DNA of 64,000 nt, from contig DATIBO010000006.1 in the NCBI GenBank assembly GCA_035457485.1, positions 370,659-434,658 of the forward strand, written 5' to 3'. Within the stretch, counting starts at the first letter, position 1. Each line of letters opens with the position of its first letter. Shown piece by piece: positions 1,016 through 20,906 of this stretch. The position numbers were made by a program, and so were the translations under genes. A model generated the notes under the pieces. The model saw nothing but the letters and a program-made list of their open reading frames with translations, searched no databases and had not been told where the DNA came from. This DNA is from Candidatus Saccharimonadales bacterium. Its GTDB lineage: Bacteria > Patescibacteriota > Saccharimonadia > Saccharimonadales > EFPC-124.

Positions 1016-1245
1016 TTTTCATGGCGGCTGCAATGGCACAAAAACCACGAGCGCGACAGACGTAATTTTCTTCTATGCGTTCCAGTTTGCAAAACCGACT
1101 TTCACTTGCGCCCAAGATCTCTGGTGGACAAACTGGCAGTTCTTTTTCTCCGCGACCATCGTATTGTTTCATAAGTTAATTATTAGCGCTTTTTTGTATA
1201 AATCATAGTGCTTGTGCTAAGCTATTAAAAAAGCCATAGGGCATC

Positions 1246-2013
1246 ATGCGCAAGAAACTTATAGTAGCAAACTGGAAAATGAAATTTACAGTTGGGGAAT
1301 CCAGCCTATTTTTGAATAAGCTCCAAGAAAAAGTCGTGGCTAACCGTAATGTCGAAGTTGTGATTTGTCCTAATGTTTTAACTTTGCAATCGCTTTCATT
1401 ACAGATAGATCGACGCAAATTTAAACTTGGGGCGCAGAATTGCTACTACAAGGACGAGGGTGCATTTACTGGTGAAGTTTCTGCCAGTATGCTACGCGGG
1501 ATTGCAAACTATATAATTATTGGTCATTCCGAACGTCGACATATTTTTTGTGAGACCGACAAACTTATTACACAAAAAGTCCAGGCAGTTTTGCGTAGCG
1601 GCCTAAAGCCGATTTTATGCGTTGGCGAAACTAAAAACGAGCGAATCGCAGGCGAAACAGCCCACACCTTACACGCTCAGGTCACGGCGGGTTTGGCAAA
1701 CGTTACGTCCGAAGAAATCAAAGATGTGGTAATTGCATATGAACCAGTTTGGGCGATTGGAACCGGTGATTTTGCCAAATCCGAAGACGCCATGACCGCG
1801 GCAAAATATATCAGGCGACAAGTCGAAGGATTGTTTGGTAAAAAAGCGGCCGAAGAAATTCAGATTTTATACGGGGGTAGCGTAGATACAGATAACGCTG
1901 GATCGTACTTGGCGGCCGAAGATGTAGACGGTTTACTGGTGGGCGGAGCGAGCTTAAAGGCTGATGCTTTTGCTACAATAATAGGTAAAGCAAACGAAAT
2001 AGCAACGGCATAA
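1246..2013 (+). CDS. tpiA: triosephosphate isomerase
   Basis: Contains the ANWKMK, IIGHSERR, AYEPVWAIGTG and ILYGGSV motifs. Confidence 0.95.
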   Translation: MRKKLIVANWKMKFTVGESSLFLNKLQEKVVANRNVEVVICPNVLTLQSLSLQIDRRKFKLGAQNCYYKDEGAFTGEVSASMLRGIANYIIIGHSERRHIFCETDKLITQKVQAVLRSGLKPILCVGETKNERIAGETAHTLHAQVTAGLANVTSEEIKDVVIAYEPVWAIGTGDFAKSEDAMTAAKYIRRQVEGLFGKKAAEEIQILYGGSVDTDNAGSYLAAEDVDGLLVGGASLKADAFATIIGKANEIATA

Positions 2014-2024
2014 GGTGGTAACGA

Positions 2025-3074
2025 GTGGCTAACGACTTAGATTTAGACGAATTACATGAGGCAGTCAGTGCCTTGATGGATCAATCAAAGGAAAAGCGAG
2101 CAGCTAAGCCCGCCGAGCCGGCTGCTGTGCTCGACCCAGCCGAGAACGTGACGGTTAAAACGGCGCCACCGACAGTTGCGCCTGAGCCGAAGTCCGAACC
2201 AGAACCGATTGCCGACAAAATAGAGGTAAAGCGACCATTGCCGAACTTATCTATTAATCGTCCTAGGGGTAGAGCGATGGACGTGATCAGCCCTAAACCG
2301 GCTACTCCACCGCCGACAAAAATTAAGCGGCAAGGTGTGACTTTGCAACCAACTCAGGACGTAAAGCCTGAGCCACCTAAGGAAATTGTTAAAGCTGAGC
2401 CGGAAACGCCAAAGCCAGAGTCGGTTCCAGCTGAGCACGCGCGACCTGAAACGCCAGCTTTAAACTATCAAAAACCTGCCGAAACTGAATGGCCCGATCC
2501 ATTGGATGTGCACGGCTTTAAAGATGAGCTCGAGCCAAAAACAGATTCAGCGCCAACAATGACCGAGGACACTCAAACAAAACCTGACCAAATTGCGCAA
2601 ACGTCACCTTTTTTGAATACCAAAGTCGAAAAACGACCCCTCGGTGCCTATTCGTCAGAAGACGCTCCGATCGAGGTTGAACCAGAAGAAACTCCCCAGC
2701 CCGAACAACAAGATAACTGGTCTTTTGGTGATTTACCACAAAATCAACCCGATGTCAGGTCCGAGCAGCAACCCGAAGCGCCGCCAATTGATTCTCTCGA
2801 TCAAACTCAAGAAACTGACCTGGATGAAATGCGTCAGGCGACAATTCCACAGCAGTACAAAACTACACAAAAAGAACACAGTAGTGATAGCCGCCCAGTT
2901 TTTGATACAAAAGATTATCACCCGCCAATCCAAGCGGCACATGCTGCACATAGAAGTAATTCAGCAATGGGCTGGGTACTAATTTTAGTTTTTGCACTAA
3001 TTTTGATAGCTGCACTGATTTTTGCGTTTTACATGATGACGGGCAGCCTGGATTTTTCGGTTTTGTTTAAATAA
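2025..3074 (+). CDS. hypothetical Pro/Glu/Lys-rich protein with a C-terminal transmembrane anchor
   Basis: GTG start after a GGTGG SD. Codon usage looks native and the sequence is low-complexity. The C-terminal hydrophobic helix is WVLILVFALILIAALIFAFYMM. Confidence 0.6.
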   Translation: MANDLDLDELHEAVSALMDQSKEKRAAKPAEPAAVLDPAENVTVKTAPPTVAPEPKSEPEPIADKIEVKRPLPNLSINRPRGRAMDVISPKPATPPPTKIKRQGVTLQPTQDVKPEPPKEIVKAEPETPKPESVPAEHARPETPALNYQKPAETEWPDPLDVHGFKDELEPKTDSAPTMTEDTQTKPDQIAQTSPFLNTKVEKRPLGAYSSEDAPIEVEPEETPQPEQQDNWSFGDLPQNQPDVRSEQQPEAPPIDSLDQTQETDLDEMRQATIPQQYKTTQKEHSSDSRPVFDTKDYHPPIQAAHAAHRSNSAMGWVLILVFALILIAALIFAFYMMTGSLDFSVLFK

Positions 3075-3135
3075 GGTTTTAGCGTTCACTACAATACTGT
3101 GCCACGCAATTTGAACTCTGTATAAAGCTAAAATT

Positions 3136-3164
3136 TTGACACTAAATCAATTTTGTAGTATGGT
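3136..3164 (+). promoter_or_regulatory. sigma70-like promoter of cassette A
   Basis: TTGACA, 17-nt spacer, TATGGT. The 5' UTR carries the hairpin CTGCCA-tatggt-TGGCAG, followed by a GGAGGG SD. Confidence 0.5.
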
Positions 3165-3217
3165 TTTGTCTTAGTCGCTGCCATATGGTTGGCAGTAACT
3201 AGCTTCCGGAGGGAAGA

Positions 3218-3748
3218 ATGACCGCTCAGACGCGAGACTTCGCCGAGATCAGCGACAAGCAGATCTTGGAGGAGGCGATGGAGTCCGGCGAGACGATCTT
3301 CAACGATCTGTTCTGGCGGGACCTTCTCAACAGCGAGACGGTGTGCATCACGGTCGCGCTGGTCGACGCCCTCGGCAACTACACCTGGCTGGGCAGTCAG
3401 GTCTTCGGCGACAAGGTTCAGTGGGACGAGAGCAAGTTCAACAGCTCGCCCGACGACAACTTCTGGGCCTACGCCGGCGGCAAGGCGATCACCTCGGCGG
3501 TGCTTCGCAAGAACACCCGCGAGGCTCGCGAAGCCGGCGACCCGCTCCCCGTGGGTGGCCTCGACTGGAACGGCGGCGTCTTCCGCGCAGTGACGTTCGG
3601 TTCGGGTGACCAGAGCCGGCACGTCGCCGTCGCGGTCGGAACGTGTGGTGTTCAGGGTGACTTCGACGAGGTCATCTCGGCGGCGGTCGTCAACACCTTC
3701 TGCGCCGTGTGGTTGCAGCGCGAAGCTGCCCGCGCCGCGCAGAAGTAA
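3218..3748 (+). CDS. G+C-rich cassette A: hypothetical cytoplasmic protein (176 aa)
   Basis: GC3-rich codons and a GGAGGG SD 4 nt before the ATG. Off-frame ORFs on both strands are typical of high-GC DNA. I recognise no confident family; there is only a faint GlcG/DUF336-like pattern (VAVAVGTCGVQGDFDEVIS). Confidence 0.75.
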   Translation: MTAQTRDFAEISDKQILEEAMESGETIFNDLFWRDLLNSETVCITVALVDALGNYTWLGSQVFGDKVQWDESKFNSSPDDNFWAYAGGKAITSAVLRKNTREAREAGDPLPVGGLDWNGGVFRAVTFGSGDQSRHVAVAVGTCGVQGDFDEVISAAVVNTFCAVWLQREAARAAQK

Positions 3749-3757
3749 CGCCCGCAA

Positions 3758-3803
3758 GAAGCCCGCAAGAGGTAAACTCTTTGCACCGCTTCTTGCGGGC
3801 TTC
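3758..3803 (+). terminator. GC-rich hairpin 3' of cassette A
   Basis: GAAGCCCGCAAGA pairs with TCTTGCGGGCTTC (13 bp) and there is no U-tract. It is homologous to the hairpin after cassette B. Confidence 0.6.
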
Positions 3804-3814
3804 GTACATTGAGC

Positions 3815-4348
3815 TTATTTTAATTTTTTAACTAGTTCATCAAGTTTGATAGTAGCGTCGTCAGATGTATTGATCGTGATCAATTTATCTAAACCGATCG
3901 GGATGTGCTGGGCGGAACGTGAGTAATCGTCGATACGGTCAAAATCTCGGTGGCCAGGATGCCGCTCGCCAGTCTTGACTCGCTCAATAAACCGCTGTCT
4001 CGAAAGCTCGTATGGTACCTTGCAATAAATCTCGATAATTTCTACATCTGGGAAGTCTTCGACAATTTTTTTAATCTGTTTACCGGCAAAGTCTGGGTTA
4101 AAAGCGTTTTCAATAATTAAAGAACGTCCGCTTTTTAAAATCCCTCTGGCAAGTTCGATTAAAAAATCAGCCGACAAAGAACCAAGCAATTTTGACCACT
4201 CCACATCATCAATCCCAAGTCTGTCAAATAAAAACTCTTTTATGTCATCCTTTGAAATTAGCATAATCTTTGTTTGTGCAGACAAGTTTCGCGATAACGT
4301 CGTTTTACCAGATCCTGGGGCACCGTTGACAATAATTAGTTTGTTCAT
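3815..4348 (-). CDS. P-loop NTPase / small-molecule kinase-like (AAA_33-type) protein
   Basis: Walker A motif GAPGSGKTT near the N-terminus. Composition is native and low in GC. The gene is sandwiched between cassettes A and B. Confidence 0.8.
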   Translation of the reverse strand: MNKLIIVNGAPGSGKTTLSRNLSAQTKIMLISKDDIKEFLFDRLGIDDVEWSKLLGSLSADFLIELARGILKSGRSLIIENAFNPDFAGKQIKKIVEDFPDVEIIEIYCKVPYELSRQRFIERVKTGERHPGHRDFDRIDDYSRSAQHIPIGLDKLITINTSDDATIKLDELVKKLK

Positions 4349-4451
4349 GCGGTTATTATATCTAATTTCGATAGACTTTAGACAATTTGCAATTTTCGTT
4401 AAAAAAGTTTATATTATGGTCACTCTTACGCAAGAGACAACGGAGGTGTTT

Positions 4452-5000
4452 GTGACCGCCACGACTCCCACTCAACAAAGGTGGAAGCTTGACAAGGAGC
4501 TGCGCGAGGGCCCGATGTTCGTTCTCGTCGACGGCGAACCGTTCAAGGTTCTGAGTTCGCTCCGGAACAGCAAGCTGTATGTCGGGACCTTCATCGACGA
4601 ATCCTATGCAGGTTTGCTGATGAAGTTCAATCCCGAGACCAAGGCCGTGACTACGATCGATGCTAACGCCGGGCTTCAGGCACTCTACATGAACAGGCTG
4701 GCGATCCCTGACTTCGTATCGCACTTGGTCAGGGCGGTTCAATGTAGTGGCCGAGACTACCGAACAGTCAGCGATGAGATCGCGCGGTCCCTATACGGGG
4801 CTGGCTTAACGGCCGAGATGACGGTTGCTCAGTGGTCGGCGTGTGCGCCGGAGAACGCCATCGATCACATCCGGGCTGACATCGACTGGATCTGGGTCCA
4901 GGCTCGGGCACACAGTCGATGGATGACGCTCCAGATCACACTGGCCGTACTCGCCAAGCTACAGCTCGATAAGCGAAGGCCGGCCGGGGACGGCCAGTAG
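4452..5000 (+). CDS. G+C-rich cassette B: hypothetical protein (~182 aa)
   Basis: GTG start 5 nt after a GGAGG SD. The longer track ORF (4242) runs antisense through the kinase gene and across a TTGCAA-17-TATATT promoter, so I trimmed it. Codons are GC3-rich. Confidence 0.7.
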   Translation: MTATTPTQQRWKLDKELREGPMFVLVDGEPFKVLSSLRNSKLYVGTFIDESYAGLLMKFNPETKAVTTIDANAGLQALYMNRLAIPDFVSHLVRAVQCSGRDYRTVSDEIARSLYGAGLTAEMTVAQWSACAPENAIDHIRADIDWIWVQARAHSRWMTLQITLAVLAKLQLDKRRPAGDGQ

Positions 5001-5011
5001 TACCTGCCCGC

Positions 5012-5061
5012 GAAAAGCCCGCAAGGAGCAATCCTCGCGCCGTGCTTCTCGCGGGCTTTTC
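5012..5061 (+). terminator. GC-rich hairpin 3' of cassette B
   Basis: GAAAAGCCCGC pairs with GCGGGCTTTTC. The region aligns with the cassette A 3' module. Confidence 0.6.
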
Positions 5062-5116
5062 ATATGTTGTCATAAACACCTAGCGGCAAAACGCTAACAC
5101 TTGTTACAATAAAGCA

Positions 5117-7273
5117 GTGAGCGAAGCCGAACTACTCTTAAAAGACCTGAATCCAGAACAACGAAAAGCTGCTGAGACAACCGAGGGGCCAGTACTTATT
5201 TTAGCCGGCGCAGGATCTGGCAAAACTAAAACCTTAACACACAGAATCGCTTATTTAATTGCCAGCGGTAAGGCTAAGCCAAGCCAGATTTTAGCCGTAA
5301 CTTTTACCAACAAAGCCGCTAAAGAAATGCGCGAACGATTGGCGCACTTACTTGGCGCCAACGGAAATGATCGTGCGTTCATGCCATTTATGGGGACGTT
5401 TCACAGTATTTGTGTACGACTTTTACGTTTTGACGGCGAACATATTCAGATTCCAAAAAATTACGTAATTTTTGATGAGGGTGACCGTCAGAGCGCAGTA
5501 AAGCAAGCACTTAAAAAGCTTGGGGTAAGCGAAAAACAATACAGCTCAAATTCGGTCGCCGGTTTAATCAGTAGTGCCAAGAACGAACTTTTAAATCCGG
5601 CCGATTACGCAGCCCAAGCCCGTTTACCTCTACAAAAGGTTGCCGCTGACGCTTACGCGATTTATGAGCGAGTGAAAAAAGAAGCCTCTGCACTGGACTT
5701 TGATGATCTAATAGGTGAAACTGTAAAACTTTTAAAAACAGTGCCAGAGGTAAAAGATAAGTGGCGAAAACAATTCAAGTATGTTTTGATCGACGAGTAT
5801 CAAGATACAAACGCAGCGCAGTACAACTTGGTAAAAATGTTAGTAAACGATCAACAAAACCTCTGTGTAGTGGGCGATGACTGGCAAAGTATTTATAGCT
5901 GGCGCGGCGCTGATTTTAAAAATATTTTAAATTTTGAACATGACTACCCTAAGAGTTTAGTCGTAAAACTCGAAGAAAACTATCGCAGCACCAAAAGTAT
6001 TTTGGACGCGGCGCATAACGTAATTACAAAAAATACTCAACGCTCAAATAAGGCGTTATGGACAAAGGCAGGCGAGGGCAGCCCTGTTAGTATTCAGTAT
6101 GTAAGCAACGAGCATTATGAAGGCGAGGTTGTTGTCAGTAAGATTAAAAGTGCTGTTGCTATGCGTGCCAGGCGCTTTAAAGATTTTGCAGTTTTATACC
6201 GAACCAATGCGCAATCACGCAGCATAGAAGAAAGTTTTATACGTTACGGAATCCCATATAGGATTGTGGGTGGTGTGCGATTCTATGACCGCAAAGAAAT
6301 AAAAGACATAATCGCGTTTATGCGATTAATTTACCAGCCAGCTGACCGCGCTAGTTTTTTGAGAATTGTAAACGTGCCTTCGCGCGGATTAGGCAATATT
6401 TCGGTTCAACGATTTTTAGATTGGAAATCTGCCCGACTTGTTGACGACAGAACCAACATAATCAGTGCGCTTGAAGCCTGCGAAACGGCGCTTGGGATAA
6501 CTGCTAAAGCTAAAAAATCGTTTGCTGATTTGGGCGAAATGCTGGCCCGATTAAAAGAAGCATCCGAAACTATGAGCTTGCCTGATTTTATTGAAAAGAT
6601 TATTCAACGTGTCGACTATATGAACTACCTCGACGACGGCACGCCTCAGGCGGAAGATCGCCAAGAAAACGTTAAAGAGTTAATCTCGGTAGCTCGCGAG
6701 TATGCAGATTTGGGATTGGCTGGGTTTTTAGAAGAAGTTGCCTTAATTAGTGACCTTGATGTGATTCAGGCCGACCAGGATGCGGTTTTGCTCATGACTA
6801 TGCATGCTGCAAAAGGATTGGAATTTCCGTGCGTGTTTATGGTGGGCATGGAAGAAAGCATTTTCCCAAGCGCTCGGTCGCTTTATGACCAGGATGACCT
6901 GGAGGAAGAGCGCAGGCTTTGCTATGTAGGAATGACTCGGGCGCGAGAGGAACTTGTTTTGACCTGCGCAAGTAGCCGCATGATCTATGGATCGACTCAG
7001 CATAATCCACCGTCACGCTTTTTGGCCGACATTGACGGCAAGGCTGAAACGCATCAAGCAACAGCCTTCGGGTTTAATGGTCCGACCGATTATGGTAATG
7101 AGCCTCGGTATGTGCCTGACGATCTAGATTTGGCGGTTGGTGATAAAGTTAAGCACCGCGTTTTTGGTCAGGGGATAATAACCGAGATTGACGGTTCTAA
7201 TGTGGCGGTTAGCTTTGCCGGTCGCGGTATGAAACGTTTAAATGTTGAGTTCGCGCCACTAGAGAAACTTTGA
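5117..7273 (+). CDS. pcrA: ATP-dependent DNA helicase PcrA/UvrD (SF1)
   Basis: Contains AGAGSGKT, TFTNKAA, DEYQDTN, TMHAAKGLEF and VGMTRAREEL. Confidence 0.95.
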   Translation: MSEAELLLKDLNPEQRKAAETTEGPVLILAGAGSGKTKTLTHRIAYLIASGKAKPSQILAVTFTNKAAKEMRERLAHLLGANGNDRAFMPFMGTFHSICVRLLRFDGEHIQIPKNYVIFDEGDRQSAVKQALKKLGVSEKQYSSNSVAGLISSAKNELLNPADYAAQARLPLQKVAADAYAIYERVKKEASALDFDDLIGETVKLLKTVPEVKDKWRKQFKYVLIDEYQDTNAAQYNLVKMLVNDQQNLCVVGDDWQSIYSWRGADFKNILNFEHDYPKSLVVKLEENYRSTKSILDAAHNVITKNTQRSNKALWTKAGEGSPVSIQYVSNEHYEGEVVVSKIKSAVAMRARRFKDFAVLYRTNAQSRSIEESFIRYGIPYRIVGGVRFYDRKEIKDIIAFMRLIYQPADRASFLRIVNVPSRGLGNISVQRFLDWKSARLVDDRTNIISALEACETALGITAKAKKSFADLGEMLARLKEASETMSLPDFIEKIIQRVDYMNYLDDGTPQAEDRQENVKELISVAREYADLGLAGFLEEVALISDLDVIQADQDAVLLMTMHAAKGLEFPCVFMVGMEESIFPSARSLYDQDDLEEERRLCYVGMTRAREELVLTCASSRMIYGSTQHNPPSRFLADIDGKAETHQATAFGFNGPTDYGNEPRYVPDDLDLAVGDKVKHRVFGQGIITEIDGSNVAVSFAGRGMKRLNVEFAPLEKL

Positions 7274-7280
7274 TAATTTT

Positions 7281-7314
7281 GGTGCTCTCTGAGCACCGGC
7301 GCTCCCGACGGGAG
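7281..7314 (-). terminator. tandem hairpins 3' of cassette C, abutting the pcrA stop
   Basis: CTCCC-gtc-GGGAG is followed by GGTGCTC-aga-GAGCACC and then AAAATTA on the minus strand. The same hairpins could also terminate pcrA. Confidence 0.55.
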
Positions 7315-7333
7315 GCTAGTGCTCAGAGTGTGC

Positions 7334-7888
7334 TCAGCTGGAGGCCTTGGTTTTGCGCTTGTGGCTGAAGTAGCCGAAGATCCCTGCGATGGCCAGCCCG
7401 ATCGAGATGATCCAGCAGGCGCTCAGCGCCAGCTTCAGTCGGGTATCGTAGACGTTGTAGTAGATCGTCTGGATGAGGACGCCGATGGCGAGTGTGACGC
7501 AGGCCATCCAGAACTTGGTGGGCCATGTGACGCGCTTGTCGTCGATTGCGGGCCGTCCACTGTTGAACAGCATCATCCCGAACGCCACCATGAGCCATGC
7601 CGCCATCCAGCCGTTCAGACTGTTGGCTTTGGGCAGCATCCTGTCGGTCGCTGCCAGCTGCTGCTCGACCTCGATGAAGTCGATGGCCGCGGAGGCCGTA
7701 CCGCAGATAGGAATAGCGAGCATGAGCGTTACGATGATGTTCGTTGCGGTCGGCGAGACCGGGAGCCAGCTCGCCAGTCTCCAGATGCCGACGGCGACGA
7801 GAATCGCCGCCATCCACTTTCCGGTTGGCGGGTCGTACAAGGCATACGTCACCGGGTCGGTCCCGATACTCGCAATTGCGTTGAACAC
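7334..7888 (-). CDS. G+C-rich cassette C: multi-pass membrane protein (184 aa)
   Basis: GTG start within the GGAGGTAGCTGTG context. It has 4-5 hydrophobic helices and GC3-rich codons. Confidence 0.75.
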   Translation of the reverse strand: MFNAIASIGTDPVTYALYDPPTGKWMAAILVAVGIWRLASWLPVSPTATNIIVTLMLAIPICGTASAAIDFIEVEQQLAATDRMLPKANSLNGWMAAWLMVAFGMMLFNSGRPAIDDKRVTWPTKFWMACVTLAIGVLIQTIYYNVYDTRLKLALSACWIISIGLAIAGIFGYFSHKRKTKASS

Positions 7889-7972
7889 AGCTACCTCCAG
7901 TAGCTAGTCGTTTGACTGGTTGAATTTATACACTATTGTAAGAAAAAAGCAAGATTCAACAGGGGTAATGTA

Positions 7973-8001
7973 TTGACTATTTTATATAAATATGGTATAG
8001 T
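7973..8001 (+). promoter_or_regulatory. sigma70-like promoter of cassette D (divergent from the cassette C promoter)
   Basis: TTGACT, 17-nt spacer, TATAGT. On the other strand, TTGCTT-16-TATAAA (7925-7952) faces cassette C. The spacer between them is AT-rich. Confidence 0.55.
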
Positions 8002-8063
8002 CTCTTTTAGACTTATTTGCAAGCATCTGCTTAGCAAAAAGTTGACGAGGAGAGGAATTTGAC

Positions 8064-8399
8064 ATGAGCTGCATCGCCAACCCCATGTGGGGCGGAGAAG
8101 TCGTGCTCGGCATGCCGAATGGAGCCCTGTGGGCTTTCGCGGTACTGCTGCCGGTCATCGCGGCCGCGCTCGGGCTCGCCTGCCTGATCTTGCACGAGAA
8201 CGGCGACAACGCCGCTATCGTCGGCGTGATCAGCAGCGTCTTCGCGCCCGTCGCGGCCTACTGCACGTTCATGCTCGACACCGAGCTGATCTCGCGCATC
8301 GGCAGCGACCCCACGGCCACCGGGATCGGCATCATCGCCCAGATCGTAGCCATGGGCTTCGGTCTAGTGATGGGCCTGATCGCCACATTCGACAACTGA
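8064..8399 (+). CDS. G+C-rich cassette D: small 3-TM membrane protein (111 aa)
   Basis: The ATG follows a GAGGAGAGG SD. The protein is very Ala/Gly/Ile-rich and hydrophobic, with GC3-rich codons. Confidence 0.75.
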   Translation: MSCIANPMWGGEVVLGMPNGALWAFAVLLPVIAAALGLACLILHENGDNAAIVGVISSVFAPVAAYCTFMLDTELISRIGSDPTATGIGIIAQIVAMGFGLVMGLIATFDN

Positions 8400-8407
8400 C
8401 GGCGCAC

Positions 8408-8444
8408 GGCGCCCTGCTCACCCTACTTGGGGAAGCAGGGCGCC
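8408..8444 (+). terminator. GC-rich hairpin 3' of cassette D
   Basis: GGCGCCCTGC pairs with GCAGGGCGCC. There is no U-tract. Confidence 0.6.
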
Positions 8445-8464
8445 AAAGCCTCAGTCCTCTCCTT

Positions 8465-8522
8465 TAGCTGTCGATATTTTTACTAGTATCCTGATGAGTC
8501 CATATTTAGGACGAAACAGCTA
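8465..8522 (+). ncRNA. type III hammerhead ribozyme motif (HHR-1)
   Basis: The sequence reads UAGCUG-UC | GAUA-loop10-UAUC-CUGAUGA-GUCC-loop7-GGAC-GAAA-CAGCUA. All core nucleotides are present. Helix III is 6 bp plus A15.1:U16.1, helix II is 4 bp and helix I is 4 bp. The cleavage triplet is GUC, with predicted cleavage after C8472. Confidence 0.8.
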
Positions 8523-8527
8523 ACTAC

Positions 8528-8556
8528 TTGAAATTTTACTAATTTTATGGTATAAA
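8528..8556 (+). promoter_or_regulatory. sigma70-like promoter of cassette E
   Basis: TTGAAA, 17-nt spacer, TATAAA, immediately 3' of HHR-1. It is followed by a ~65-nt UTR and a GAGGAGG SD. Confidence 0.5.
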
Positions 8557-8621
8557 TACACAGTTGTTCAGCAAACCAGCTGATACGACAAAACGTACTG
8601 CATTGCCTGAGGAGGCTTGCA

Positions 8622-9245
8622 ATGTCCCTGTTCCGACGCGGCCAGCACTGCTGCTGCCAGCCAGCTTTCGCCACCATCATCGGCTTCGGGAGAATCCCGA
8701 TGACGAACGGTGGCCACAGCCACGACTGCACCTGCACGCACGGTCGCTGCATCGGTCCGGTCCGGATCGTCCACACCGCCGCCAACTGCACCTGCATCGA
8801 CGGCGAGTGCGACAAGACGGACTACGACCGCATCCAGCAGATGATCGACGCCGCCACGGCGCCGCTCACCATCCAGATCACCACGCTCACCAGTCGCCTC
8901 GACGAGGCCGGCCGGCGGATCGAGGACCTGGAGGCGCGGCCCATCGCCGGCATCACCGAGGTCGTGGGCGAGCGTCGCTCGTTCGTTACCCGGTGGACCC
9001 TGGTCGGAGCCATCATCGGCTTCGCTCTGGCGGTCATCGGGGCGCTCAGCGTCCCCGAGGGCATCTACCACCTGCTCGGCAACAAGACCTGGTTCTACAC
9101 CCAGAGCTTCCTGTTCTGGATGGAGATCATCATCGGTACGACGTTCATCGTCGCCGGACTCGGGTTCTTCTTCGGAATGGCCCGCAGTGCCGACGCCGTT
9201 CCGACGTACCGTGAGGTCACCCGCACGGACGGTGGTTCGCTGTGA
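8622..9245 (+). CDS. G+C-rich cassette E1: Cys/His-rich, coiled-coil, C-terminally membrane-anchored protein (207 aa)
   Basis: The N-terminus has CCCQ..HSHDCTCTHGRC..NCTCIDGEC. A heptad-like segment follows, then 2-3 C-terminal TM helices. Confidence 0.75.
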   Translation: MSLFRRGQHCCCQPAFATIIGFGRIPMTNGGHSHDCTCTHGRCIGPVRIVHTAANCTCIDGECDKTDYDRIQQMIDAATAPLTIQITTLTSRLDEAGRRIEDLEARPIAGITEVVGERRSFVTRWTLVGAIIGFALAVIGALSVPEGIYHLLGNKTWFYTQSFLFWMEIIIGTTFIVAGLGFFFGMARSADAVPTYREVTRTDGGSL

Positions 9246-9979
9246 ACCGTCGCCGTGTAGCGCTCGTTGGGTTGCTGGCGATTCCGCTGGCGTGCCTGGC
9301 GTTCGTGCTTTCGAACTCGGTGGTGATGGTCACCGGACCGGCTTCGGTTCCGGTGGCGATCGCGCCGAGTCCCTCTGTCGTCCCGTCCCCGGCCGTAGTG
9401 CCGCCGGACGACTACTGCCTGGTTAAGGCTCCGCCCGAGTATCTGGGCGAGTACACACCAGACAACGACTTCGGCTACCCTGCGGTTACCGATTGGGAGC
9501 GCAAGCACCCCAAGAAGTTCCTGCAGAACCCCGACAGTCTGCCCGACACGCTCACCGACCTGAAGATCCGCTGGTGCGGAGTCGATGGCGAGGGCGTGAG
9601 AGGCGGGGATCCGCTGCTTCAGAACGCACACTTCAGTGTGCCGGACGACAGCGACCCCAACCGCCCCTTCAACGAGGCCAGCTGGCGTGCCACCACGGAC
9701 GCCAACGTGAACCGCGTGAAGTGGGACCAGGCCGAGCTCAAGCTCGCGCCCGCGGGAGACTACTATGTCATGTACATGGTGGAATCCCGCAAGACCGGCA
9801 AGCTGGAAGTGCGAATCAGCCTCCAGTGGAAGCCGGACACCCTGGTGCTTATGCTGCCGATCGCGAGAGCGGACGGCACAGGCACCGAAACGCTGATGTT
9901 GCGACTGGAGTGTGGGTTCCAACCCATGTTCGAGAAGCGCAGCAGCGTCCCCCGGTGGCTGCAGAAGTTCCTGAACTGA
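9242..9979 (+). CDS. G+C-rich cassette E2: secreted protein with an N-terminal signal/TM segment (245 aa)
   Basis: GTG start overlaps the E1 stop (GTGA), suggesting translational coupling. The N-terminus is MNRRRVALVGLLAIPLACLAFVL, followed by a Pro-rich linker. Confidence 0.75.
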   Translation: MNRRRVALVGLLAIPLACLAFVLSNSVVMVTGPASVPVAIAPSPSVVPSPAVVPPDDYCLVKAPPEYLGEYTPDNDFGYPAVTDWERKHPKKFLQNPDSLPDTLTDLKIRWCGVDGEGVRGGDPLLQNAHFSVPDDSDPNRPFNEASWRATTDANVNRVKWDQAELKLAPAGDYYVMYMVESRKTGKLEVRISLQWKPDTLVLMLPIARADGTGTETLMLRLECGFQPMFEKRSSVPRWLQKFLN

Positions 9980-9995
9980 CGCCGCCACCAAGCGC

Positions 9996-10029
9996 GGGCC
10001 GCACCTGGACAAGTTCCCAGGTGCGGCCC
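9996..10029 (+). terminator. GC-rich hairpin 3' of cassette E
   Basis: GGGCCGCACCTGG pairs with CCAGGTGCGGCCC (13 bp perfect). Confidence 0.6.
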
Positions 10030-10094
10030 CGCCGCAACACCTTTGCCTCAGTAGGGCATTTTTTTATATCAAAAAATTGTGTCATAATTGAAGT

Positions 10095-10604
10095 ATGTTT
10101 AAAAGCAAAGACTCCAAAAAGAAAGTCGACAAAGTAAAAACCAGTAAATTCGAAGCTGTTGGCCGCATCGCTCACAAGGCGGCATCCCCATTCATGAAGT
10201 TCTATTTGCGCGATACACATGTTCGTGTGCGCGTTGTAATTATCAACGATCACAAAGAGGTTTTGTTGGTTCGTAGCTGGTTTAGTCATCAAAATTGGAG
10301 CTTACCAGGTGGCGGAATTAAGATTACAGAATCACCAGTAGAAGCCGGCGTGCGCGAGGTCTACGAAGAAACTGGTCTGCGGATAGCAGTGGATCATTTG
10401 CAAGATTTGGGAACGTTTAAAAATCCAAATCCGCAAGCTGGTTATACCGTCGCATGTTTTAAAGTTGACATTCCAAAGCGGCCGCCAAAAATCGCGCACC
10501 ATCGCCGCCTAGAGATGTTGGATGTGGCATGGTTTGATCTTGATACATTGCCAAAGAACCGCGCACCATCTGTAGACTTAGCTCTTGATTTGGCTAGTAA
10601 ATAG
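10095..10604 (+). CDS. Nudix hydrolase
   Basis: Nudix box GGGIKITESPVEAGVREVYEETGL. Confidence 0.85.
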   Translation: MFKSKDSKKKVDKVKTSKFEAVGRIAHKAASPFMKFYLRDTHVRVRVVIINDHKEVLLVRSWFSHQNWSLPGGGIKITESPVEAGVREVYEETGLRIAVDHLQDLGTFKNPNPQAGYTVACFKVDIPKRPPKIAHHRRLEMLDVAWFDLDTLPKNRAPSVDLALDLASK

Positions 10605-10696
10605 CGAAAATTTTACTACAATTTGCCGTTGACTTTTGTCTGACATAAGCATTATGCTTAAGGAAGTTTACTTTAAAAACACAAAAAGGCAAAAAA

Positions 10697-10828
10697 ATGA
10701 GTGAGGGTTTCGACGTACTACCGATAGTAGTTGTTTTGGCGTTAGTTGCATTTGGGGCAGCTCTAGCCATAATAGACAAAAAATATGCAAGGTTAAGCAC
10801 CGACTGGAACGAGTTTAAAAAACGCTAA
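10697..10828 (+). CDS. possible small membrane protein (43 aa)
   Basis: My own translation is MSEGFDVLPIVVVLALVAFGAALAIIDKKYARLSTDWNEFKKR. It lies downstream of TTGACT-18-TATGCT. It is below the ORF-track size cutoff and the SD is weak. Confidence 0.35.
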   Translation: MSEGFDVLPIVVVLALVAFGAALAIIDKKYARLSTDWNEFKKR

Positions 10829-10867
10829 ATCGGTCAAAGTTTGTTATAATAGTTCGCAGCACTACTT

Positions 10868-12007
10868 ATGCGAATTATTGAGTTTACAAAATTCAAGAGT
10901 TTTTGGTGGGCTGCAGCACTTTTTATGGTGCTTTTGGCAGGCGTATTTGCATTGAATTCTGGTAAAACCCATGCCGAAAACGAGCGTGTTATTACTATTT
11001 ATCATGACGGCGCAGAACAAACGATCGTAACAGATGCTCCAAACGTAGAAGAGGCTCTAAAACGGAGTGGAATTTCACTTGGAACTAGCGATTTTGTTGA
11101 ACCGGCATTAAACACGCAGTTTGAAGCACCTGCTTACAATATAAATATTTACCGTGCTCGGCCTATATTAATAGAAGATGGCGGCCAAAAACATTACGTT
11201 AGTAGCCCATTTTCTAGCCCCGAAAAAATCGCTGAGGCAGCCGGACTTAAATTACACGATGAAGACATAGCCGAGCTTACCCGAAGCAACGATTTAGTTG
11301 GTGATGGCGTTGGTCTAAAATTAACTATCCATCGTGCCACGCATGTTGTTTTAGTACTCTATGGCATGCAAAAAGATGTATATACTCAGTCGGCAACTGT
11401 GGGTGCGTTCTTGCAAGAAAAAGGCATAAAGCTTGGCGCCGAAGATGGAACTAGCTCTAGCCTACAGACCCTAATTACGGCCGACTTTAAAATAGAAGTT
11501 TGGCGTAATGGGGTGCAAACTATAACCGAAGAACAAGAGGTTAAATTTGCTACCGAGACAATCCGCGACACAAGCAAGCCAGTTGGATTTAAAGAAGTTA
11601 AAGAGCCGGGCAAAAATGGTAAAAAACTCGTCACATACGAAGTTGAACTACGTAACGGTGTCGAGCTAAGCCGAAAAGAAATTCAAAGCGTAGTGACCGA
11701 GGAGTCTAAAAAACAGGTAGAGGTTATTGGTGTCCAGCTTGGATTCACTGGCGCTTTCCAGGAAGCCCTTGCAAAACTTCGTTCTTGTGAGGCTGGCGGT
11801 AACTATGATCGTAATAGTGGAAACGGCTACTACGGCGCATATCAGTACGACATCTCTACTTGGGCTAATTGGCAAGGCTACGCACGCCCCGATCTTGCGC
11901 CGGCCGAGGTTCAGGATGCTAAGGCGTACGAGACTTATATGAGACGCGGTTGGCAGCCATGGCCATCGTGCACCTCTAAACTTGGTTTACAAGATATTTA
12001 TCGTTAG
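10868..12007 (+). CDS. RpfB/YabE-like cell-wall protein (DUF348 repeats, G5 domain, Rpf-type transglycosylase-like domain)
   Basis: N-terminal TM segment. The G5-like segment is KKLVTYEVELRNGVELSRKEIQSVV. The C-terminus has CEAGGNYDRNSGNGYYGAYQYDISTW. Confidence 0.85.
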   Translation: MRIIEFTKFKSFWWAAALFMVLLAGVFALNSGKTHAENERVITIYHDGAEQTIVTDAPNVEEALKRSGISLGTSDFVEPALNTQFEAPAYNINIYRARPILIEDGGQKHYVSSPFSSPEKIAEAAGLKLHDEDIAELTRSNDLVGDGVGLKLTIHRATHVVLVLYGMQKDVYTQSATVGAFLQEKGIKLGAEDGTSSSLQTLITADFKIEVWRNGVQTITEEQEVKFATETIRDTSKPVGFKEVKEPGKNGKKLVTYEVELRNGVELSRKEIQSVVTEESKKQVEVIGVQLGFTGAFQEALAKLRSCEAGGNYDRNSGNGYYGAYQYDISTWANWQGYARPDLAPAEVQDAKAYETYMRRGWQPWPSCTSKLGLQDIYR

Positions 12008-12016
12008 TATAAAAAC

Positions 12017-12442
12017 ATGACTTATAAATACGATGGTTTTAATTACGTTATTCGCTTAAATAAAGATGAGCGTTTGAGTGAAGCTCTTAAGGAGTTTTTG
12101 CAAAAAACCGAGGTTGATGGCGCTTGGATTTTAGGTATTGGTGGTGCTCAAGAGGCGACATTAGGCTTTTACAGTTTAAAAACTAAGCAGTACAACTGGC
12201 GAACATTTAGTGACTTAATGGAAGTCACTAGCTTACAGGGTAATATAGCAGTTGACGAGGATGGCGAACCGGTTTTTCATATGCACGGGACTTTCGCTGG
12301 CGAAGACTTCAATAGCTTTGGTGGCCATGTTAAAGATTTGATTGTGGGCGGGACTCTGGAAATTTTTGTTCATCGAACCGATGACATGCCTCTGAGCCGC
12401 AAGCACGATACTGAGGTTGGCTTGGATTTATTGGACTTGTAA
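12017..12442 (+). CDS. PPC (DUF296) domain protein
   Basis: The pattern MEVTSLQGNIAVDEDGEPVFHMHGTFAGEDFNSFGGHV matches my recollection of the PPC/DUF296 fold. Confidence 0.6.
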   Translation: MTYKYDGFNYVIRLNKDERLSEALKEFLQKTEVDGAWILGIGGAQEATLGFYSLKTKQYNWRTFSDLMEVTSLQGNIAVDEDGEPVFHMHGTFAGEDFNSFGGHVKDLIVGGTLEIFVHRTDDMPLSRKHDTEVGLDLLDL

Positions 12443-13035
12443 TGAATGTAGTTAATCTTGATCAGGCTGCCCAGCTGTTAAAAAGCGGTAAAATTGGAGT
12501 TATCCCAACCGATACTGTCTATGGACTAGTTGCTCTAGCGGCAAACGAACTGGCGGTTGCGCGAATTTACAAGGTAAAAAATCGTGTTAACAAACCCGGC
12601 CCCACAATTGCAGCTAGTGTTGATCAGTTGCGCGACCTAGGTTTGCTTGAGTCTGATCTTATAAAAGCTGCTAAATTTTGGCCCAATCCAATTAGTATTG
12701 TTTTAAAGCCTGGTGCAAACTTGGCTTATTTAAGTCAGGGCTTGCCAGATTTACCGTTTAGGGTAGTCGCCAATACAAAAACTAGCGAATTTTTGCAAAA
12801 AACTGGTGCTCTAGCCACTACAAGTGCCAATGCGCCAGGCGAACCAGCCGCCGAAAATTTGCAACAAGCAGTAGACTATTTTGGTGATGCAGTTGATTTT
12901 TATGTAGATGGCGGTGAAATTAGTAACGCTTTGCCGTCGACAATCATTGGATTTGATGGTGAAAATGTTAAAATTTATCGAGAAGGCGCTGTAACTAAAC
13001 AAAAAATAGAAAGTTTAAAAAATGCCAACTCCTAA
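12442..13035 (+). CDS. tsaC: L-threonylcarbamoyladenylate synthase (YrdC/Sua5 family)
   Basis: Contains GVIPTDTVYGLVA, TSAN and PSTII motifs. The start overlaps the upstream stop (ATGA-type coupling). Confidence 0.85.
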   Translation: MNVVNLDQAAQLLKSGKIGVIPTDTVYGLVALAANELAVARIYKVKNRVNKPGPTIAASVDQLRDLGLLESDLIKAAKFWPNPISIVLKPGANLAYLSQGLPDLPFRVVANTKTSEFLQKTGALATTSANAPGEPAAENLQQAVDYFGDAVDFYVDGGEISNALPSTIIGFDGENVKIYREGAVTKQKIESLKNANS

Positions 13036-13792
13036 AAAATCCCTGGGCCAACACTGGCTTTTCGACAGTAAGAGTCTAGGCGCAATTTGCGACGCAGCTG
13101 AGATTACTCCAGATGACACAATTTTAGAAATTGGCCCGGGTCTGGGGCCGCTTACAATAGAACTTACTCAGCGTGCAAAAAACGTTATAGCCGTGGAATT
13201 TGATGAACAATTAGCTCGCGAGTTACCGTCTCGGGTGCCGGCTGCTAACTTAAAAGTGATTCACGAAGATATTTTAAAGTTCAATTTAAATAATTTGCCT
13301 CAAAACTACAAGGTTGTGGCGAATGTGCCTTATTACATCACTAGCAGTCTAGTTCGATATTTATTAGAATCTAAAAATCCGCCAAAAACTACTGTAATGT
13401 TAATTCAAAAAGAAGTGGCAGAGCGAATCTGTGCTAAACCCGGAGACATGAGTATTTTAGCGATTAGCGCTCAGCTTTATGCTGAAACTGATTTGGGGGT
13501 TTTGGTCACGGCCGATAAATTTGATCCACCGCCAAAAGTGGATTCTCAGGTGGTAATTTTGAATAAACGCGAAAAACCACTGTTTAAAGATCTGGATGTT
13601 AAAAAGTTTTTTAGAATCGTTCGTGCTGGTTTTGGCGAAAAACGAAAAACGCTCCGCAACAGTTTAAGCGGGGGGTTGCAGCTTGATAAAACCAAAGTAG
13701 AAACGTTGTTAGATAAGTCTGGGATTGCGCAAACGACGCGAGCACAGCAACTTAGTCTAGAAGATTGGCATAAACTCTACATTGGGTTGTAG
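13022..13792 (+). CDS. rsmA: 16S rRNA (adenine1518/1519-N6)-dimethyltransferase
   Basis: Contains KKSLGQHWL, EIGPGLGPLT and VANVPYYITS. Confidence 0.95.
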   Translation: MPTPKKSLGQHWLFDSKSLGAICDAAEITPDDTILEIGPGLGPLTIELTQRAKNVIAVEFDEQLARELPSRVPAANLKVIHEDILKFNLNNLPQNYKVVANVPYYITSSLVRYLLESKNPPKTTVMLIQKEVAERICAKPGDMSILAISAQLYAETDLGVLVTADKFDPPPKVDSQVVILNKREKPLFKDLDVKKFFRIVRAGFGEKRKTLRNSLSGGLQLDKTKVETLLDKSGIAQTTRAQQLSLEDWHKLYIGL

Positions 13793-13796
13793 TAGG

Positions 13797-13831
13797 TTCG
13801 CCGCCCAGAGTCGAAAGCCCTGGGCGGCGAA
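13797..13831 (-). terminator. GC-rich hairpin 3' of cassette F, 5 nt from the rsmA stop
   Basis: TTCGCCGCCCAG pairs with CTGGGCGGCGAA (12 bp perfect). Confidence 0.6.
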
Positions 13832-13842
13832 CGGTGGTCGTT

Positions 13843-14106
13843 TTAGCTGCTTACATCTTCTCCCTGTTCATCCTGCCTGGCATCATTGCCAGAGATATCG
13901 GTCTCACCCTCGTCATCGGCAACTCCGGCCATCAGGGCTCGAATATCACCAACTCGGAAACGGTGGTGTCCACCCGGAGTTCTTTTTGAGCTAAGTCTTC
14001 CTGCCTTTACCCATCTGGGCACGGTTTTCGGATCAACCCGGAATAATGCTGCAACCTCCCCTGAGGTGAGTAGCTGGTCGTCTGGATCGATCAGTTCGCG
14101 TGGCAC
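13843..14106 (-). CDS. G+C-rich cassette F: BldC-like MerR/excisionase-family HTH DNA-binding protein (87 aa)
   Basis: LLTSGEVAALFRVDPKTVPRWVKAGRLSSKRTPGGHHRFRVGDIRALMAG closely follows the actinobacterial BldC/Xis-type wHTH pattern as I recall it. It has an acidic C-terminal tail and a GTG start after an AAGGAG SD. Confidence 0.85.
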   Translation of the reverse strand: MPRELIDPDDQLLTSGEVAALFRVDPKTVPRWVKAGRLSSKRTPGGHHRFRVGDIRALMAGVADDEGETDISGNDARQDEQGEDVSS

Positions 14107-14134
14107 ATGGCTCCTTACGTCGTTTGTGAAATAT

Positions 14135-14163
14135 ATAATAAAATAAAATTATGAGTTATGCAA
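14135..14163 (-). promoter_or_regulatory. sigma70-like promoter of cassette F
   Basis: On the minus strand: TTGCAT, 17-nt spacer, TATTAT, in an AT-rich spacer. Confidence 0.45.
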
Positions 14164-14287
14164 TATGTTCTTGTTAGGATCATGTTTTTGAAGTAATATT
14201 GGTTCATCATGTTATCGATGCAAATTATGGTTCGGTTTTAGCAGGCGTACAAAACTTGTATCTTATTAATTTTTTTGAGAACCAATT

Positions 14288-15934
14288 ATGATTGCATCTG
14301 TAAAAATAACCGAAAAATCTTTTGGGGCAACCCAACTTTATAAAAACTTAAACTTTAGTATTCAAAAAGGCGAAAAGCTGGCGATTATTGGCCGCAACGG
14401 AGTGGGCAAGTCTACGCTTTTTAATATAATGGACGGCAAAGATGGCGATTTTGTTGGAGATTTAATTTACAAAAAAGGCATAAAAATTGCCACGACTCGC
14501 CAAGAGCATCACGATGTGGATGATTTAACGGCGGTGGCATATATTTTGCAGGAATTGCCAGAATACTCGCGCCTAAAACATATAATCGAAACTTATCCGG
14601 CGCACATGGGCGACAATGAAGCGAAAATCACTAAATTTACTGAGGCGCTTGAACGTTTTGGCGAACTCGGTTTTTATCACGTAGAAGATGAAGTACGCAC
14701 AACCTTGGCGGATTACCAGATTGGCGATAAAGCCGACATGCCACTTAAAACTCTTTCGGGCGGTCAGCGCCGTTTTGTGGAGTTGGTAAAACTTACGCAC
14801 GCACGCGCCGATCTGTTATTGATCGACGAGCCAACCAACCACATGGACTACATTGCAAAAGAGCGTTTTATAAAATGGTTTAAAAACGCGCCTCAAGCCG
14901 TGGTTGTAATTTCGCACGATCGCGATATTTTGCAAACTGTGGATCAGATCATCGAGTTAACAGACGGCCTATCGTTAAAATTTGTAGGTAACTATGACGC
15001 TTATTTGCGTCAAAATGCGACCACAACGGTTAGCCAGCTTAACGATTACGAAACCGCTCTTAGAACAATCGAGAATTTAAACAAGCAAATTCAATCGGTT
15101 CGTGCCAAAAAAGCTAGCACAAGTAAAACGCCAAACCCATTCATACCGTTAGAGCGACGTTTGGTTAAGGAACGTGACGAACTAAAAGTTAATTTGCAAA
15201 AGCCTAATTTTTGGGTTGATCAAGAATCGCTTGCAGGCATGCAGGATAAAGTTAGCGAGAGGTACCATAAATATAAAGCTAAAAATATTTCGCTTAACAC
15301 AAAATCAATTTTGGCGAGCAAAGCAAATTATTTGGTCAGCGCTCTTGATCTTTCGCTGGGTTACAGCGAACCGCTTTTTACGGATGTAAACTTTACGATT
15401 TCGCCTGGTGATCGATTAGAGATTAGAGGACGCAATGGTGCCGGTAAATCCACGATTATTAATGCAATTATGGAGTTTGCGGCTGGCAATATCCCTGAAA
15501 CTCTTAAAGCCGGTGAAATAAAAGTTGATAAAAAATGTAAGATCGGCCGCTATGAACAAGAAATTAGCGGGAAGTTGCTTGATTTAAATTTGGTTCAGGC
15601 GATCGAACAGATTTATCGCGACTTTGGATTGAGTATAACTGATCAAGAGATCATGCGACTAATGAGTAACTATTTGTTCGATCCGCAGCTCGATAAAGAA
15701 AAAGAAGTTTCTAAACTCTCGGGCGGTCAAAAAGCGCGGCTGCAGCTGATTAGGTTGTTTGCAAATAACCCAGATTTGCTAATTTTGGACGAGCCGACCA
15801 ACCATTTAGATTTACCGAGTATCGAGGAATTAGAAAACGCCCTGTTAAAATTCGGTGGCGCGATCTTGTATGTCTCGCACGATAGTTATTTTACAAAAAA
15901 ATTGGCTGGGCAAGTTGTGAAAATCGGCAGGTAA
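14288..15934 (+). CDS. ABC-F family ATPase (two ABC domains, no TM domain)
   Basis: Walker A motifs GRNGVGKST and GRNGAGKST. ABC signature motifs LSGGQRR and LSGGQKAR. Confidence 0.9.
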   Translation: MIASVKITEKSFGATQLYKNLNFSIQKGEKLAIIGRNGVGKSTLFNIMDGKDGDFVGDLIYKKGIKIATTRQEHHDVDDLTAVAYILQELPEYSRLKHIIETYPAHMGDNEAKITKFTEALERFGELGFYHVEDEVRTTLADYQIGDKADMPLKTLSGGQRRFVELVKLTHARADLLLIDEPTNHMDYIAKERFIKWFKNAPQAVVVISHDRDILQTVDQIIELTDGLSLKFVGNYDAYLRQNATTTVSQLNDYETALRTIENLNKQIQSVRAKKASTSKTPNPFIPLERRLVKERDELKVNLQKPNFWVDQESLAGMQDKVSERYHKYKAKNISLNTKSILASKANYLVSALDLSLGYSEPLFTDVNFTISPGDRLEIRGRNGAGKSTIINAIMEFAAGNIPETLKAGEIKVDKKCKIGRYEQEISGKLLDLNLVQAIEQIYRDFGLSITDQEIMRLMSNYLFDPQLDKEKEVSKLSGGQKARLQLIRLFANNPDLLILDEPTNHLDLPSIEELENALLKFGGAILYVSHDSYFTKKLAGQVVKIGR

Positions 15935-15984
15935 ACCTAATGCTCACTATTAGTTATATCCTAATTATGATATAATGAGTGTAA

Positions 15985-16032
15985 ATGACACACAGTTTTG
16001 CTCAATTTTCGATGATGTACATGATGCGCTAG
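15985..16032 (+). promoter_or_regulatory. candidate Met-rich leader peptide ORF upstream of metG
   Basis: My own translation is MTHSFAQFSMMYMMR (5 Met in 15 codons). The ATG lies 9 nt after TATAAT (15971-15976). The stop overlaps the GC palindrome GCGCTAGCGCGC, which is followed by a T6 run (16040-16047). Confidence 0.3.
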
Positions 16033-20775: not shown

Positions 20776-20786
20776 ACCCAAGAAGC

Positions 20787-20823
20787 GCGGCTCGGCCTGG
20801 ATGTTCATTCGGGCCGAGCCCGC
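20787..20823 (+). terminator. GC-rich hairpin 3' of cassette G
   Basis: GCGGCTCGGCC pairs with GGCCGAGCC(C)GC. There is no U-tract. Confidence 0.6.
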
Positions 20824-20833
20824 CCTTGGACGT

Positions 20834-20881: not shown

Positions 20882-20906
20882 TAAAAAGTATGAGAAAATA
20901 GAAGTA

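Follow-up and report, generated by a model that had tools for sequence, protein, structure and literature searches.

A natural type III hammerhead ribozyme after a G+C-rich gene cassette in a Saccharibacteria chromosome

We analysed a stretch of 64,000 nt (the window) from a contig of Candidatus Saccharimonadales bacterium (DATIBO010000006.1, assembly GCA_035457485.1); positions are those of the window unless another locus is named. On its plus strand, between two G+C-rich gene cassettes called D and E, lies a type III hammerhead ribozyme, HH1 (8465-8522), which is almost certainly a genuine natural hammerhead. Our best reading of its role, held with moderate confidence, is that the ribozyme makes the 3' end of the cassette transcript and insulates the downstream gene from read-through; the transcription, the read-through, the cleavage in vivo and the fate of the mRNA we infer. 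A weaker hammerhead, HH2, follows another cassette (F) of the same window, and a homologue of HH1 is found at the same chromosomal site in a second Saccharibacteria genome.

Structure and conservation of HH1

The original prediction, made from the letters alone, placed a complete type III hammerhead at these positions; the letters are as given there, and both the Rfam E-value and the predicted fold agree with it. Helix III consists of UAGCUGU (8465-8471) paired with ACAGCUA (8516-8522), which gives 7 bp, or 8 bp when U8464-A8523 is included. Position 17 is the unpaired C8472, an H nucleotide, after which the RNA is predicted to be cut (8472/8473). In helix I (8473-8490), four Watson-Crick pairs (GAUA/UAUC) can be extended to 6 bp by a U.G and a U-A pair around a 6-nt loop. 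The core segments are CUGAUGA (8491-8497) and GAA (8513-8515), and between them helix II (8498-8512) reads GUCC-AUAUUUA-GGAC, with a 7-nt loop. All type III core nucleotides are present (C3 U4 G5 A6 N7 G8 A9 and G12 A13 A14), as are the A15.1-U16.1 pair (A8516-U8471) and the G10.1-C11.1 pair, which closes helix II. The topology is also that of type III, helices I and II being closed by loops and helix III open.

Concerning the covariance-model check that had been proposed, Hammerhead_3 (RF00008) aligns to HH1 over the whole model (positions 1-54) with 47.3 bits. The E-value is significant, at 1.8e-9 locally and 2.9e-7 for the full window, both strands and all 4227 Rfam families; the score is just under the Rfam gathering score of 48.5 bits, which is a curation cut-off and no biochemical property. 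A default Rfam scan at gathering thresholds reports four tRNAs alone, and HH1 surfaces in E-value mode only. The window has two copies of the pattern of core plus helix II, CTGATGAGTCC-N(3-9)-GGACGAAA; the number expected from 100 dinucleotide-preserving shuffles is 0.00. When HH1 is folded alone, the minimum-energy and centroid structures are both the hammerhead three-way junction (-15.5 kcal/mol, z = -2.8). The junction persists in the fold of 8400-8530, where the 3' hairpin of cassette D forms a separate domain (-54.6 kcal/mol, z = -6.6). Stem I (6 bp) exceeds stem II (4 bp) by 2 bp, a geometry that has been tied to pseudoknots (PMC3088659).

We surveyed 80 Saccharibacteria loci around the gene for PcrA (1.38 Mb) by a descriptor search and by R1, a covariance model built from HH1 and its homologue. 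The descriptor search yielded a single clear hammerhead of type III, at 12537-12596 of L006 (CAYOML010000007.1, an uncultured Saccharibacteria metagenome-assembled genome, MAG), which lies in the gap between the PcrA and NUDIX genes as HH1 does. Its core is complete, and it scores 40.3 bits in Rfam (E 2.2e-7). The order at this locus is a gene for an 88-aa membrane protein, a G+C-rich hairpin without a U-tract, the hammerhead and an A+T-rich promoter-like stretch. Thus the hotspot, the module order and an A+U-rich helix I are common to both hammerheads. They differ in helices I and III by compensatory changes, in N7, which is C in L006, and in the next gene, which is the core NUDIX gene at L006 and another cassette at HH1.

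The two hammerheads align without gaps, and 44/59 bases are identical in the global alignment. All pairs are standard (17/17), and the core is intact. In three pairs both partners differ between the two hammerheads (U-A/C-G and A-U/U-G in helix III, G-C/A-U in helix I). When the partners are shifted by 1-3 columns, the pairing falls to 32-50%; a shuffle control of the pairing is weak with two sequences, 62/500 shuffles reaching the observed value. In the flanks, the pyrimidine-rich spacer aligns, as does the promoter-like region downstream, and the hairpin region has diverged. A working ribozyme would leave such a pattern, with the core intact and the helices compensated where the DNA has otherwise diverged, and it points to selection. 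Between the protein of cassette D and the 88-aa protein of L006 there is only marginal similarity (E 0.036), and homology is not established.

Although its score is under the gathering threshold, a chance resemblance with no ribozyme fold can be given practically no weight for HH1: it is ruled out by the statistics (the E-value for the window, and a core pattern found twice there and in 0/100 shuffles) together with the L006 homologue and its covariation, and the minimum-energy fold is the hammerhead fold. In 1.44 Mb, R1 matches HH1, L006 and HH2 only, and with its filters off it picks up no additional hammerhead, degenerate ones included, behind the other cassettes of the window. Matches in four loci of the 80-locus search (L032, L047, L055 and L071) were rejected, as the core is missing. 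Rfam gave no other ribozyme classes in L001-L007.

Natural origin and likeness to RiboJ

The window comes from an uncultured Saccharibacterium of the environment (a soil-type MAG) and is no construct. The proteins of D, E2 (the second gene of cassette E) and F are 100% identical to VLA77_02170, VLA77_02180 and VLA77_02250 of the NCBI entry 'MAG TPA: Candidatus Saccharimonadales bacterium', from a contig of 889,392 bp. The Logan assembly of SRR25158331 is 100% identical to 5064-11399 of the window, i.e. over 6,336 bases with HH1 included. The PcrA protein has 75-78% identity with proteins from Candidatus Saccharibacteria/Saccharimonadales MAGs, and the core gene order g71-g1246-g2025-PcrA-gap-NUDIX-g10868-g12017-g13022 is common to the window and 12 Saccharibacteria MAGs. 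No match came up when 1-16000 was compared with phages by megablast, or 8400-8640 with plasmids by blastn.

The original prediction had pointed to a likeness to the hammerhead of satellite tobacco ringspot virus (sTRSV), used in the RiboJ insulator, and held that an engineered origin must be excluded. We compared HH1 with the sTRSV 46-mer, GTCACCGGATGTGCTTTCCGGTCTGATGAGTCCGTGAGGACGAAAC (PMC9519601), and with the 5' end of RiboJ, AGCTGTCACCGG..., taken from a primer (PMC6263354). The likeness holds for the core, helix II (GUCC/GGAC) and helix III (GCUGUC/GACAGC), the aligned segments in common being AGCUGUC, CUGAUGAGUCC and GGACGAAAC(AGC). It fails for helix I and both loops, where HH1 has GAUAUUUUUACUAGUAUC and sTRSV ACCGGAUGUGCUUUCCGGU, and where loop 2 is AUAUUUA in HH1 and GUGA in sTRSV. 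Helix III of HH1, with its 7-8 bp, is a further difference, and the 3' flank of HH1 has no match to sTRSV or RiboJ. The 3' hairpin of RiboJ is presumably absent at HH1.

The string in common is also widespread in natural hammerheads. A scan of IMG/VR for CTGAYGAGTCCA-N(2-8)-AGGACGAAA returned 119 stretches and, among these, 106 distinct matches with enough flank, of which 66 are strict type III (66/106). A GCTGTC arm is present in 10/66 of these viral type III matches, and a stable hairpin lies within 45 nt upstream in 55/66. In metagenomes, GCYGTC...CTGAYGAGTCCA...AGGACGAAAC was found in 50 natural stretches with 54 motif occurrences, which are marine and phage-like, none being Saccharibacteria-like. 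Where these have enough flank, nearly all show a stem-loop just before the hammerhead, and in most a ribosome-binding site (RBS) and ATG follow about 20-50 nt on. The metagenome pattern requiring an A+U-rich helix I (ATAT...TATY) gave 0 matches. Since the string is common in natural viral and metagenome hammerheads, the resemblance of GCUGUC...CUGAUGAGUCC...GGACGAAACAGC is, on sequence grounds, the usual type III consensus of natural hammerheads and not diagnostic of RiboJ.

An engineered insulator derived from RiboJ or sTRSV, or contamination from one, would account for the segments in common and for the tidy layout of the cassettes (promoter, untranslated region (UTR), RBS, coding sequence (CDS), hairpin). 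The engineered origin is refuted for practical purposes by the placement of the sequence within a Saccharimonadales MAG, which an independent read assembly reproduces, and by the occurrence of the cassette design and of a diverged hammerhead in other natural MAGs; the unrelated helix I and loops, the missing plasmid or phage match and the natural occurrences counted above also speak against it. We see next to no chance for it, and the exclusion called for at the outset has been obtained. What HH1 has in common with sTRSV and RiboJ is the type III hammerhead itself and, by analogy, its likely effect, as trimming upstream of a gene's 5' UTR is the purpose for which RiboJ was designed; the natural context of HH1 sets it apart.

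A second hammerhead and a proposed role in 3'-end formation

HH2 lies 10 nt past the hairpin of cassette F and 22 nt ahead of the start codon of a core gene (20907). Its core is complete, with CUGAUGA at 20856-20862; helix I (20839-20855) has 6-7 bp, and helix II (20863-20874) is GUCC-AAAA-GGAC, the commonest form among phage hammerheads. Position 17 is A20838, in a UUA cleavage triplet. The RF00008 score is 31.5 bits (E 0.0086 for the window, 4e-5 locally), R1 gives 24.8 bits, and the minimum-energy fold is the hammerhead fold. Cassette F and HH2 together form an insertion of ~700 nt, with HH2 near its 3' end; the flanking core genes are ~35 nt apart in L006.

The original prediction had HH1 20 nt past the D hairpin and 5 nt ahead of the predicted -35 of cassette E; with the hairpin ending at 8444 and TTGAAA starting at 8528, this spacing is correct. 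The predicted fold adds three pairs within the 15-nt internal region of the hairpin. No U-tract follows it and the terminator scan gave no intrinsic-terminator call there; it probably acts as a stabiliser or terminates weakly. Near HH1 the one canonical terminator is that after cassette E (10044-10058). The D promoter is the sole evident source of plus-strand RNA across HH1, since cassette C lies on the minus strand.

We propose that RNA from the D promoter would run past the D hairpin, which is unlikely to terminate transcription efficiently because it has no U-tract. The 58-nt hammerhead would then fold during transcription and cleave itself between C8472 and G8473. The upstream product would be the D mRNA with a 2',3'-cyclic phosphate end 28 nt past a stable hairpin, by which its 3' end would be protected; the downstream product would start with a 5'-OH, followed by the helix I and helix II hairpins. 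The cut would uncouple the D transcript from cassette E, downstream on the same strand. HH2 would do likewise before its core gene, restoring a short leader to a gene displaced by the insertion. The earlier suggestion that read-through from D would be cut after C8472 fits every sequence and structure test that we ran.

HH1, HH2 and the L006 hammerhead each stand after a hairpin without a U-tract and before a gene on the same strand; for HH1 these are the hairpin at 8408-8444 and cassette E at 8622, and for HH2 the hairpin at 20786-20823 and the gene at 20907. Cassettes that end in a U-tract terminator (B, E and the homologue of D in L252) have no hammerhead. This association of hammerheads with contexts that appear to lack a terminator supports the proposed role in 3'-end formation.

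Several points have to be set against this role. HH1 is 1.2 bits short of the Rfam gathering score. A by-eye check for a tertiary contact between its loops 1 and 2, of the kind that supports hammerhead activity at physiological Mg, gave a complementarity of 2 bp only, none of it convincing. Helix III of HH2 has only 4 bp (20834-20837/20878-20881). The association of hammerheads and hairpins counts three positive and three or four negative cases. Cassette E has its own promoter past HH1, so that a cut in read-through RNA would bring it no obvious benefit; cassette A has neither a U-tract nor a hammerhead, and its neighbour is convergent. Also, a hammerhead at the hotspot is present in 2/81 Saccharibacteria loci, and the motif is therefore dispensable for the core genome.

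The hammerheads of phages and prophages flank genes singly or in short blocks, and native transcripts of ~2 kb were cleaved in vitro (Perreault et al. 2011, PMC3088659); their proposed role is to convert long transcripts to gene-length mRNAs (PMC3088659). The layout of hairpin, hammerhead and next gene is already known in bacteria and phages (PMC3088659), and it matches the series of hairpin, hammerhead, RBS and ATG that is common in phages. HH1 resembles the phage type III hammerheads in having an identical core, topology and GUCC/GGAC helix II, and its GCUGUC/GACAGC helix III is often seen in them too; like them, it comes just past a stem-loop, with the next gene on that strand a short way downstream. 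It differs in its A+U-rich helix I and 7-nt A/U loop 2, most phage examples having a loop 1 of the GYGWGUGC type and an AAAA loop 2. The hairpin is 20 nt upstream of HH1 compared with 0-5 nt in phages, and HH1 is followed by a promoter and not directly by an RBS. Another difference is the location of HH1, which is chromosomal in Saccharibacteria, a group of the Candidate Phyla Radiation (CPR), at the ends of orphan G+C-rich cassettes. A phage or prophage location was not borne out, as six cassette proteins have no PHROG match and the neighbours of HH1 are PcrA and NUDIX in conserved synteny.

The main alternative is that the hammerheads are passengers or relics of phage-derived cassettes, which may still cleave and have no function for the bacterium. 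We consider it unlikely, though with a chance that is far from trivial. The closest architectural matches are on phage or viral contigs, helix II of HH2 (GUCC-AAAA-GGAC) is typical of phages, the motif is sporadic (2/81 loci), and the cassettes are orphans of foreign base composition. A relic is harder to reconcile with HH1 and L006, in which 17 pairs (three of them compensated) and all bases of the core are kept next to a hairpin region that has diverged strongly; nor do the cassette proteins match PHROG families, and no phage structural or integrase genes are near 7-10 kb. We hold a mobility role to be very improbable. Here the hammerhead would set the end of a retrozyme-like or circular RNA intermediate that spreads the cassettes, which agrees with the position of HH1 and HH2 at or near the 3' end of inserted DNA, with the presence/absence polymorphism of cassettes at the hotspot and with a 53-nt 3' hairpin common to cassettes A and B. 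It is opposed by the single hammerhead per cassette, with no flanking pair, and by the many cassettes (most of them) that have none; nor did we see a reverse transcriptase, an integrase, terminal repeats or target duplications. Ribozyme-made 3' ends remain our preferred reading of HH1 and HH2.

The G+C-rich cassettes and the meaning of the hammerheads

Accessory cassettes with a GC content of 58-66%, at least nine in number, are spread over the window in a background of ~43% GC that encodes ordinary genes (Table 1). The G+C content at third codon positions (GC3) is 0.8-0.9 in eight of them, and cassette B is the least G+C-rich (~58%). Their design consists of an A+T-rich sigma-70-like promoter, a hairpin in the 5' UTR, an RBS, one or two open reading frames (ORFs) and a G+C-rich 3' hairpin. 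Six cassette proteins have no Pfam match above the curated cut-off and no PHROG family.

Table 1. Positions of the hammerheads, cassettes and neighbouring features in the window
Feature	Positions	Strand	Evidence
HH1, type III hammerhead ribozyme	8465-8522	+	Rfam RF00008 match, minimum-energy fold, L006 homologue
HH2, weaker type III hammerhead	20831-20884	+	RF00008 match, fold, exact core pattern
Cassette D promoter, sigma-70-type, predicted	7973-8001	+	TTGACT, 17-nt spacer, TATAGT, upstream TG; promoter scan 10/12 matches
Cassette D CDS, 111 aa, multi-pass membrane-like orphan	8064-8399	+	ORF list, translation; GC content (65% GC, GC3 0.89)
Cassette D 3' hairpin, G+C-rich	8408-8444	+	Sequence, fold of 8400-8530; 11-bp outer stem, 15-nt internal region
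Cassette E promoter, putative	8528-8556	+	By sequence: TTGAAA 8528-8533, 17-nt spacer, TGnTATAAA; begins 5 nt past HH1
Cassette E, two-gene G+C-rich operon	8622-9979	+	E1 8622-9245, E2 9242-9979, stop/start overlap; GC content (GC3 0.90 and 0.83)
Intrinsic terminator closing cassette E	10044-10065	+	Hairpin + T7; terminator scan; no hammerhead after
Cassette F CDS, 150-aa orphan, 63% GC	20323-20775	+	ORF, synteny; GC content
Cassette F 3' hairpin, G+C-rich, without U-tract	20786-20823	+	Sequence
Accessory cassette	3218-3748	+	GC content
Accessory cassette B	4452-5000	+	GC content
Accessory cassette	7334-7888	-	GC content
Accessory cassette	43682-44167	-	GC content
Accessory cassette	56430-57098	-	GC content
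Accessory cassette	57218-57697	+	GC content
PcrA/UvrD	5117-7273		Core gene
NUDIX	10095-10604		Core gene

Homologue searches with the proteins of D, E2 and F among billions of sequences returned the query itself and, in the case of D and of E2, a single relative. For D this is P0005 (34% identity, the only homologue found); for E2 it is P0002 (51% identity). The E1 protein (207 aa) is 34% identical to the product of an ORF upstream of P0002 in L201, and E2 is 29% identical to a gene at the same hotspot in L001. Positions 1-1034 of L252 hold the homologue of D (34%) in a cassette of the same design, which has a canonical U-tract terminator and no hammerhead. Because the same design is found in natural MAGs, namely L001 (an E1/E2-like operon), L252 (the D homologue) and L201 (E1- and E2-like genes), the cassettes are, judging from their sequence, no assembly chimeras.

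The cassettes sit between core genes, the order of which is conserved in relatives. The gap between PcrA and NUDIX spans 7274-10094 in the window and 12134-13800 in L001, and among related Saccharibacteria it ranges from 0.5 to 4.8 kb; this range of sizes marks it as a hotspot for accessory genes. The contents of the gap differ (L002-L009 included) and are mostly G+C-richer, and the E1/E2-like operon of L001 is a distant one. The 3' hairpins of A (3750-3802) and B (5006-5058) are 72% identical over 53 nt (GCCCGCnAnAAGCCCGCAAG...CTTCTnGCGGGCTT), which suggests a possible common element at cassette ends; when the surroundings of the cassettes were searched for terminal repeats or target duplications, this hairpin was the only result. 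Four dispersed tRNA genes (Leu-GAG, Val-TAC, Phe-GAA and Gly-GCC) lie within 54828-61681, interleaved with several G+C-rich islands.

Concerning the DNA just past HH1, the cassette E promoter was recognised by sequence; the promoter scanner made no call there, because the -10 hexamer ends in A. The D and E promoters have a long motif in common (TTGAnnnTTTTAnnAAnTnTATGGTATA; TATGGTATA). The stretch past the L006 hammerhead aligns to the E promoter region, and the promoter may belong to the hammerhead module. The Logan gene calls include a 167-aa ORF on the minus strand (8568-9071), opposite the plus-strand E1; E1 is the conserved one, and the minus-strand ORF is likely a wrong-strand call in high-GC DNA.

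Actinobacteria are the hosts of Saccharibacteria epibionts, and high-GC Actinobacteria hosts or their phages are an obvious guess for the donors of the cassettes. A bolder idea is that the hammerheads are built-in 3' ends of an undescribed, self-contained kind of Saccharibacteria cassette that inserts at core-gene hotspots. The ribozyme would replace the terminator, so that an insertion spares or deliberately feeds the downstream core gene, and the donors may be high-GC (Actinobacteria hosts or phages). We regard this as improbable, and offer it as speculation.

A literature search gave no paper naming both hammerhead ribozymes and Saccharibacteria. Apparently intact hammerheads are now placed in chromosomes of this CPR group. 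Annotation at Rfam thresholds misses HH1, HH2 and the L006 hammerhead, because all three score below the gathering cut-off. The arrangement at HH1 would be a natural counterpart of the RiboJ insulator logic, in which a ribozyme after a hairpin without a U-tract separates the transcript of an inserted gene from the next gene. Should hammerheads prove to be linked to terminator-less cassettes across genomes, this would give a concrete and testable role to bacterial hammerheads, the function of which has been vague since 2011. Odder than the ribozyme are the G+C-rich orphan cassettes, which may tell more than it does about gene flow into these reduced epibionts.

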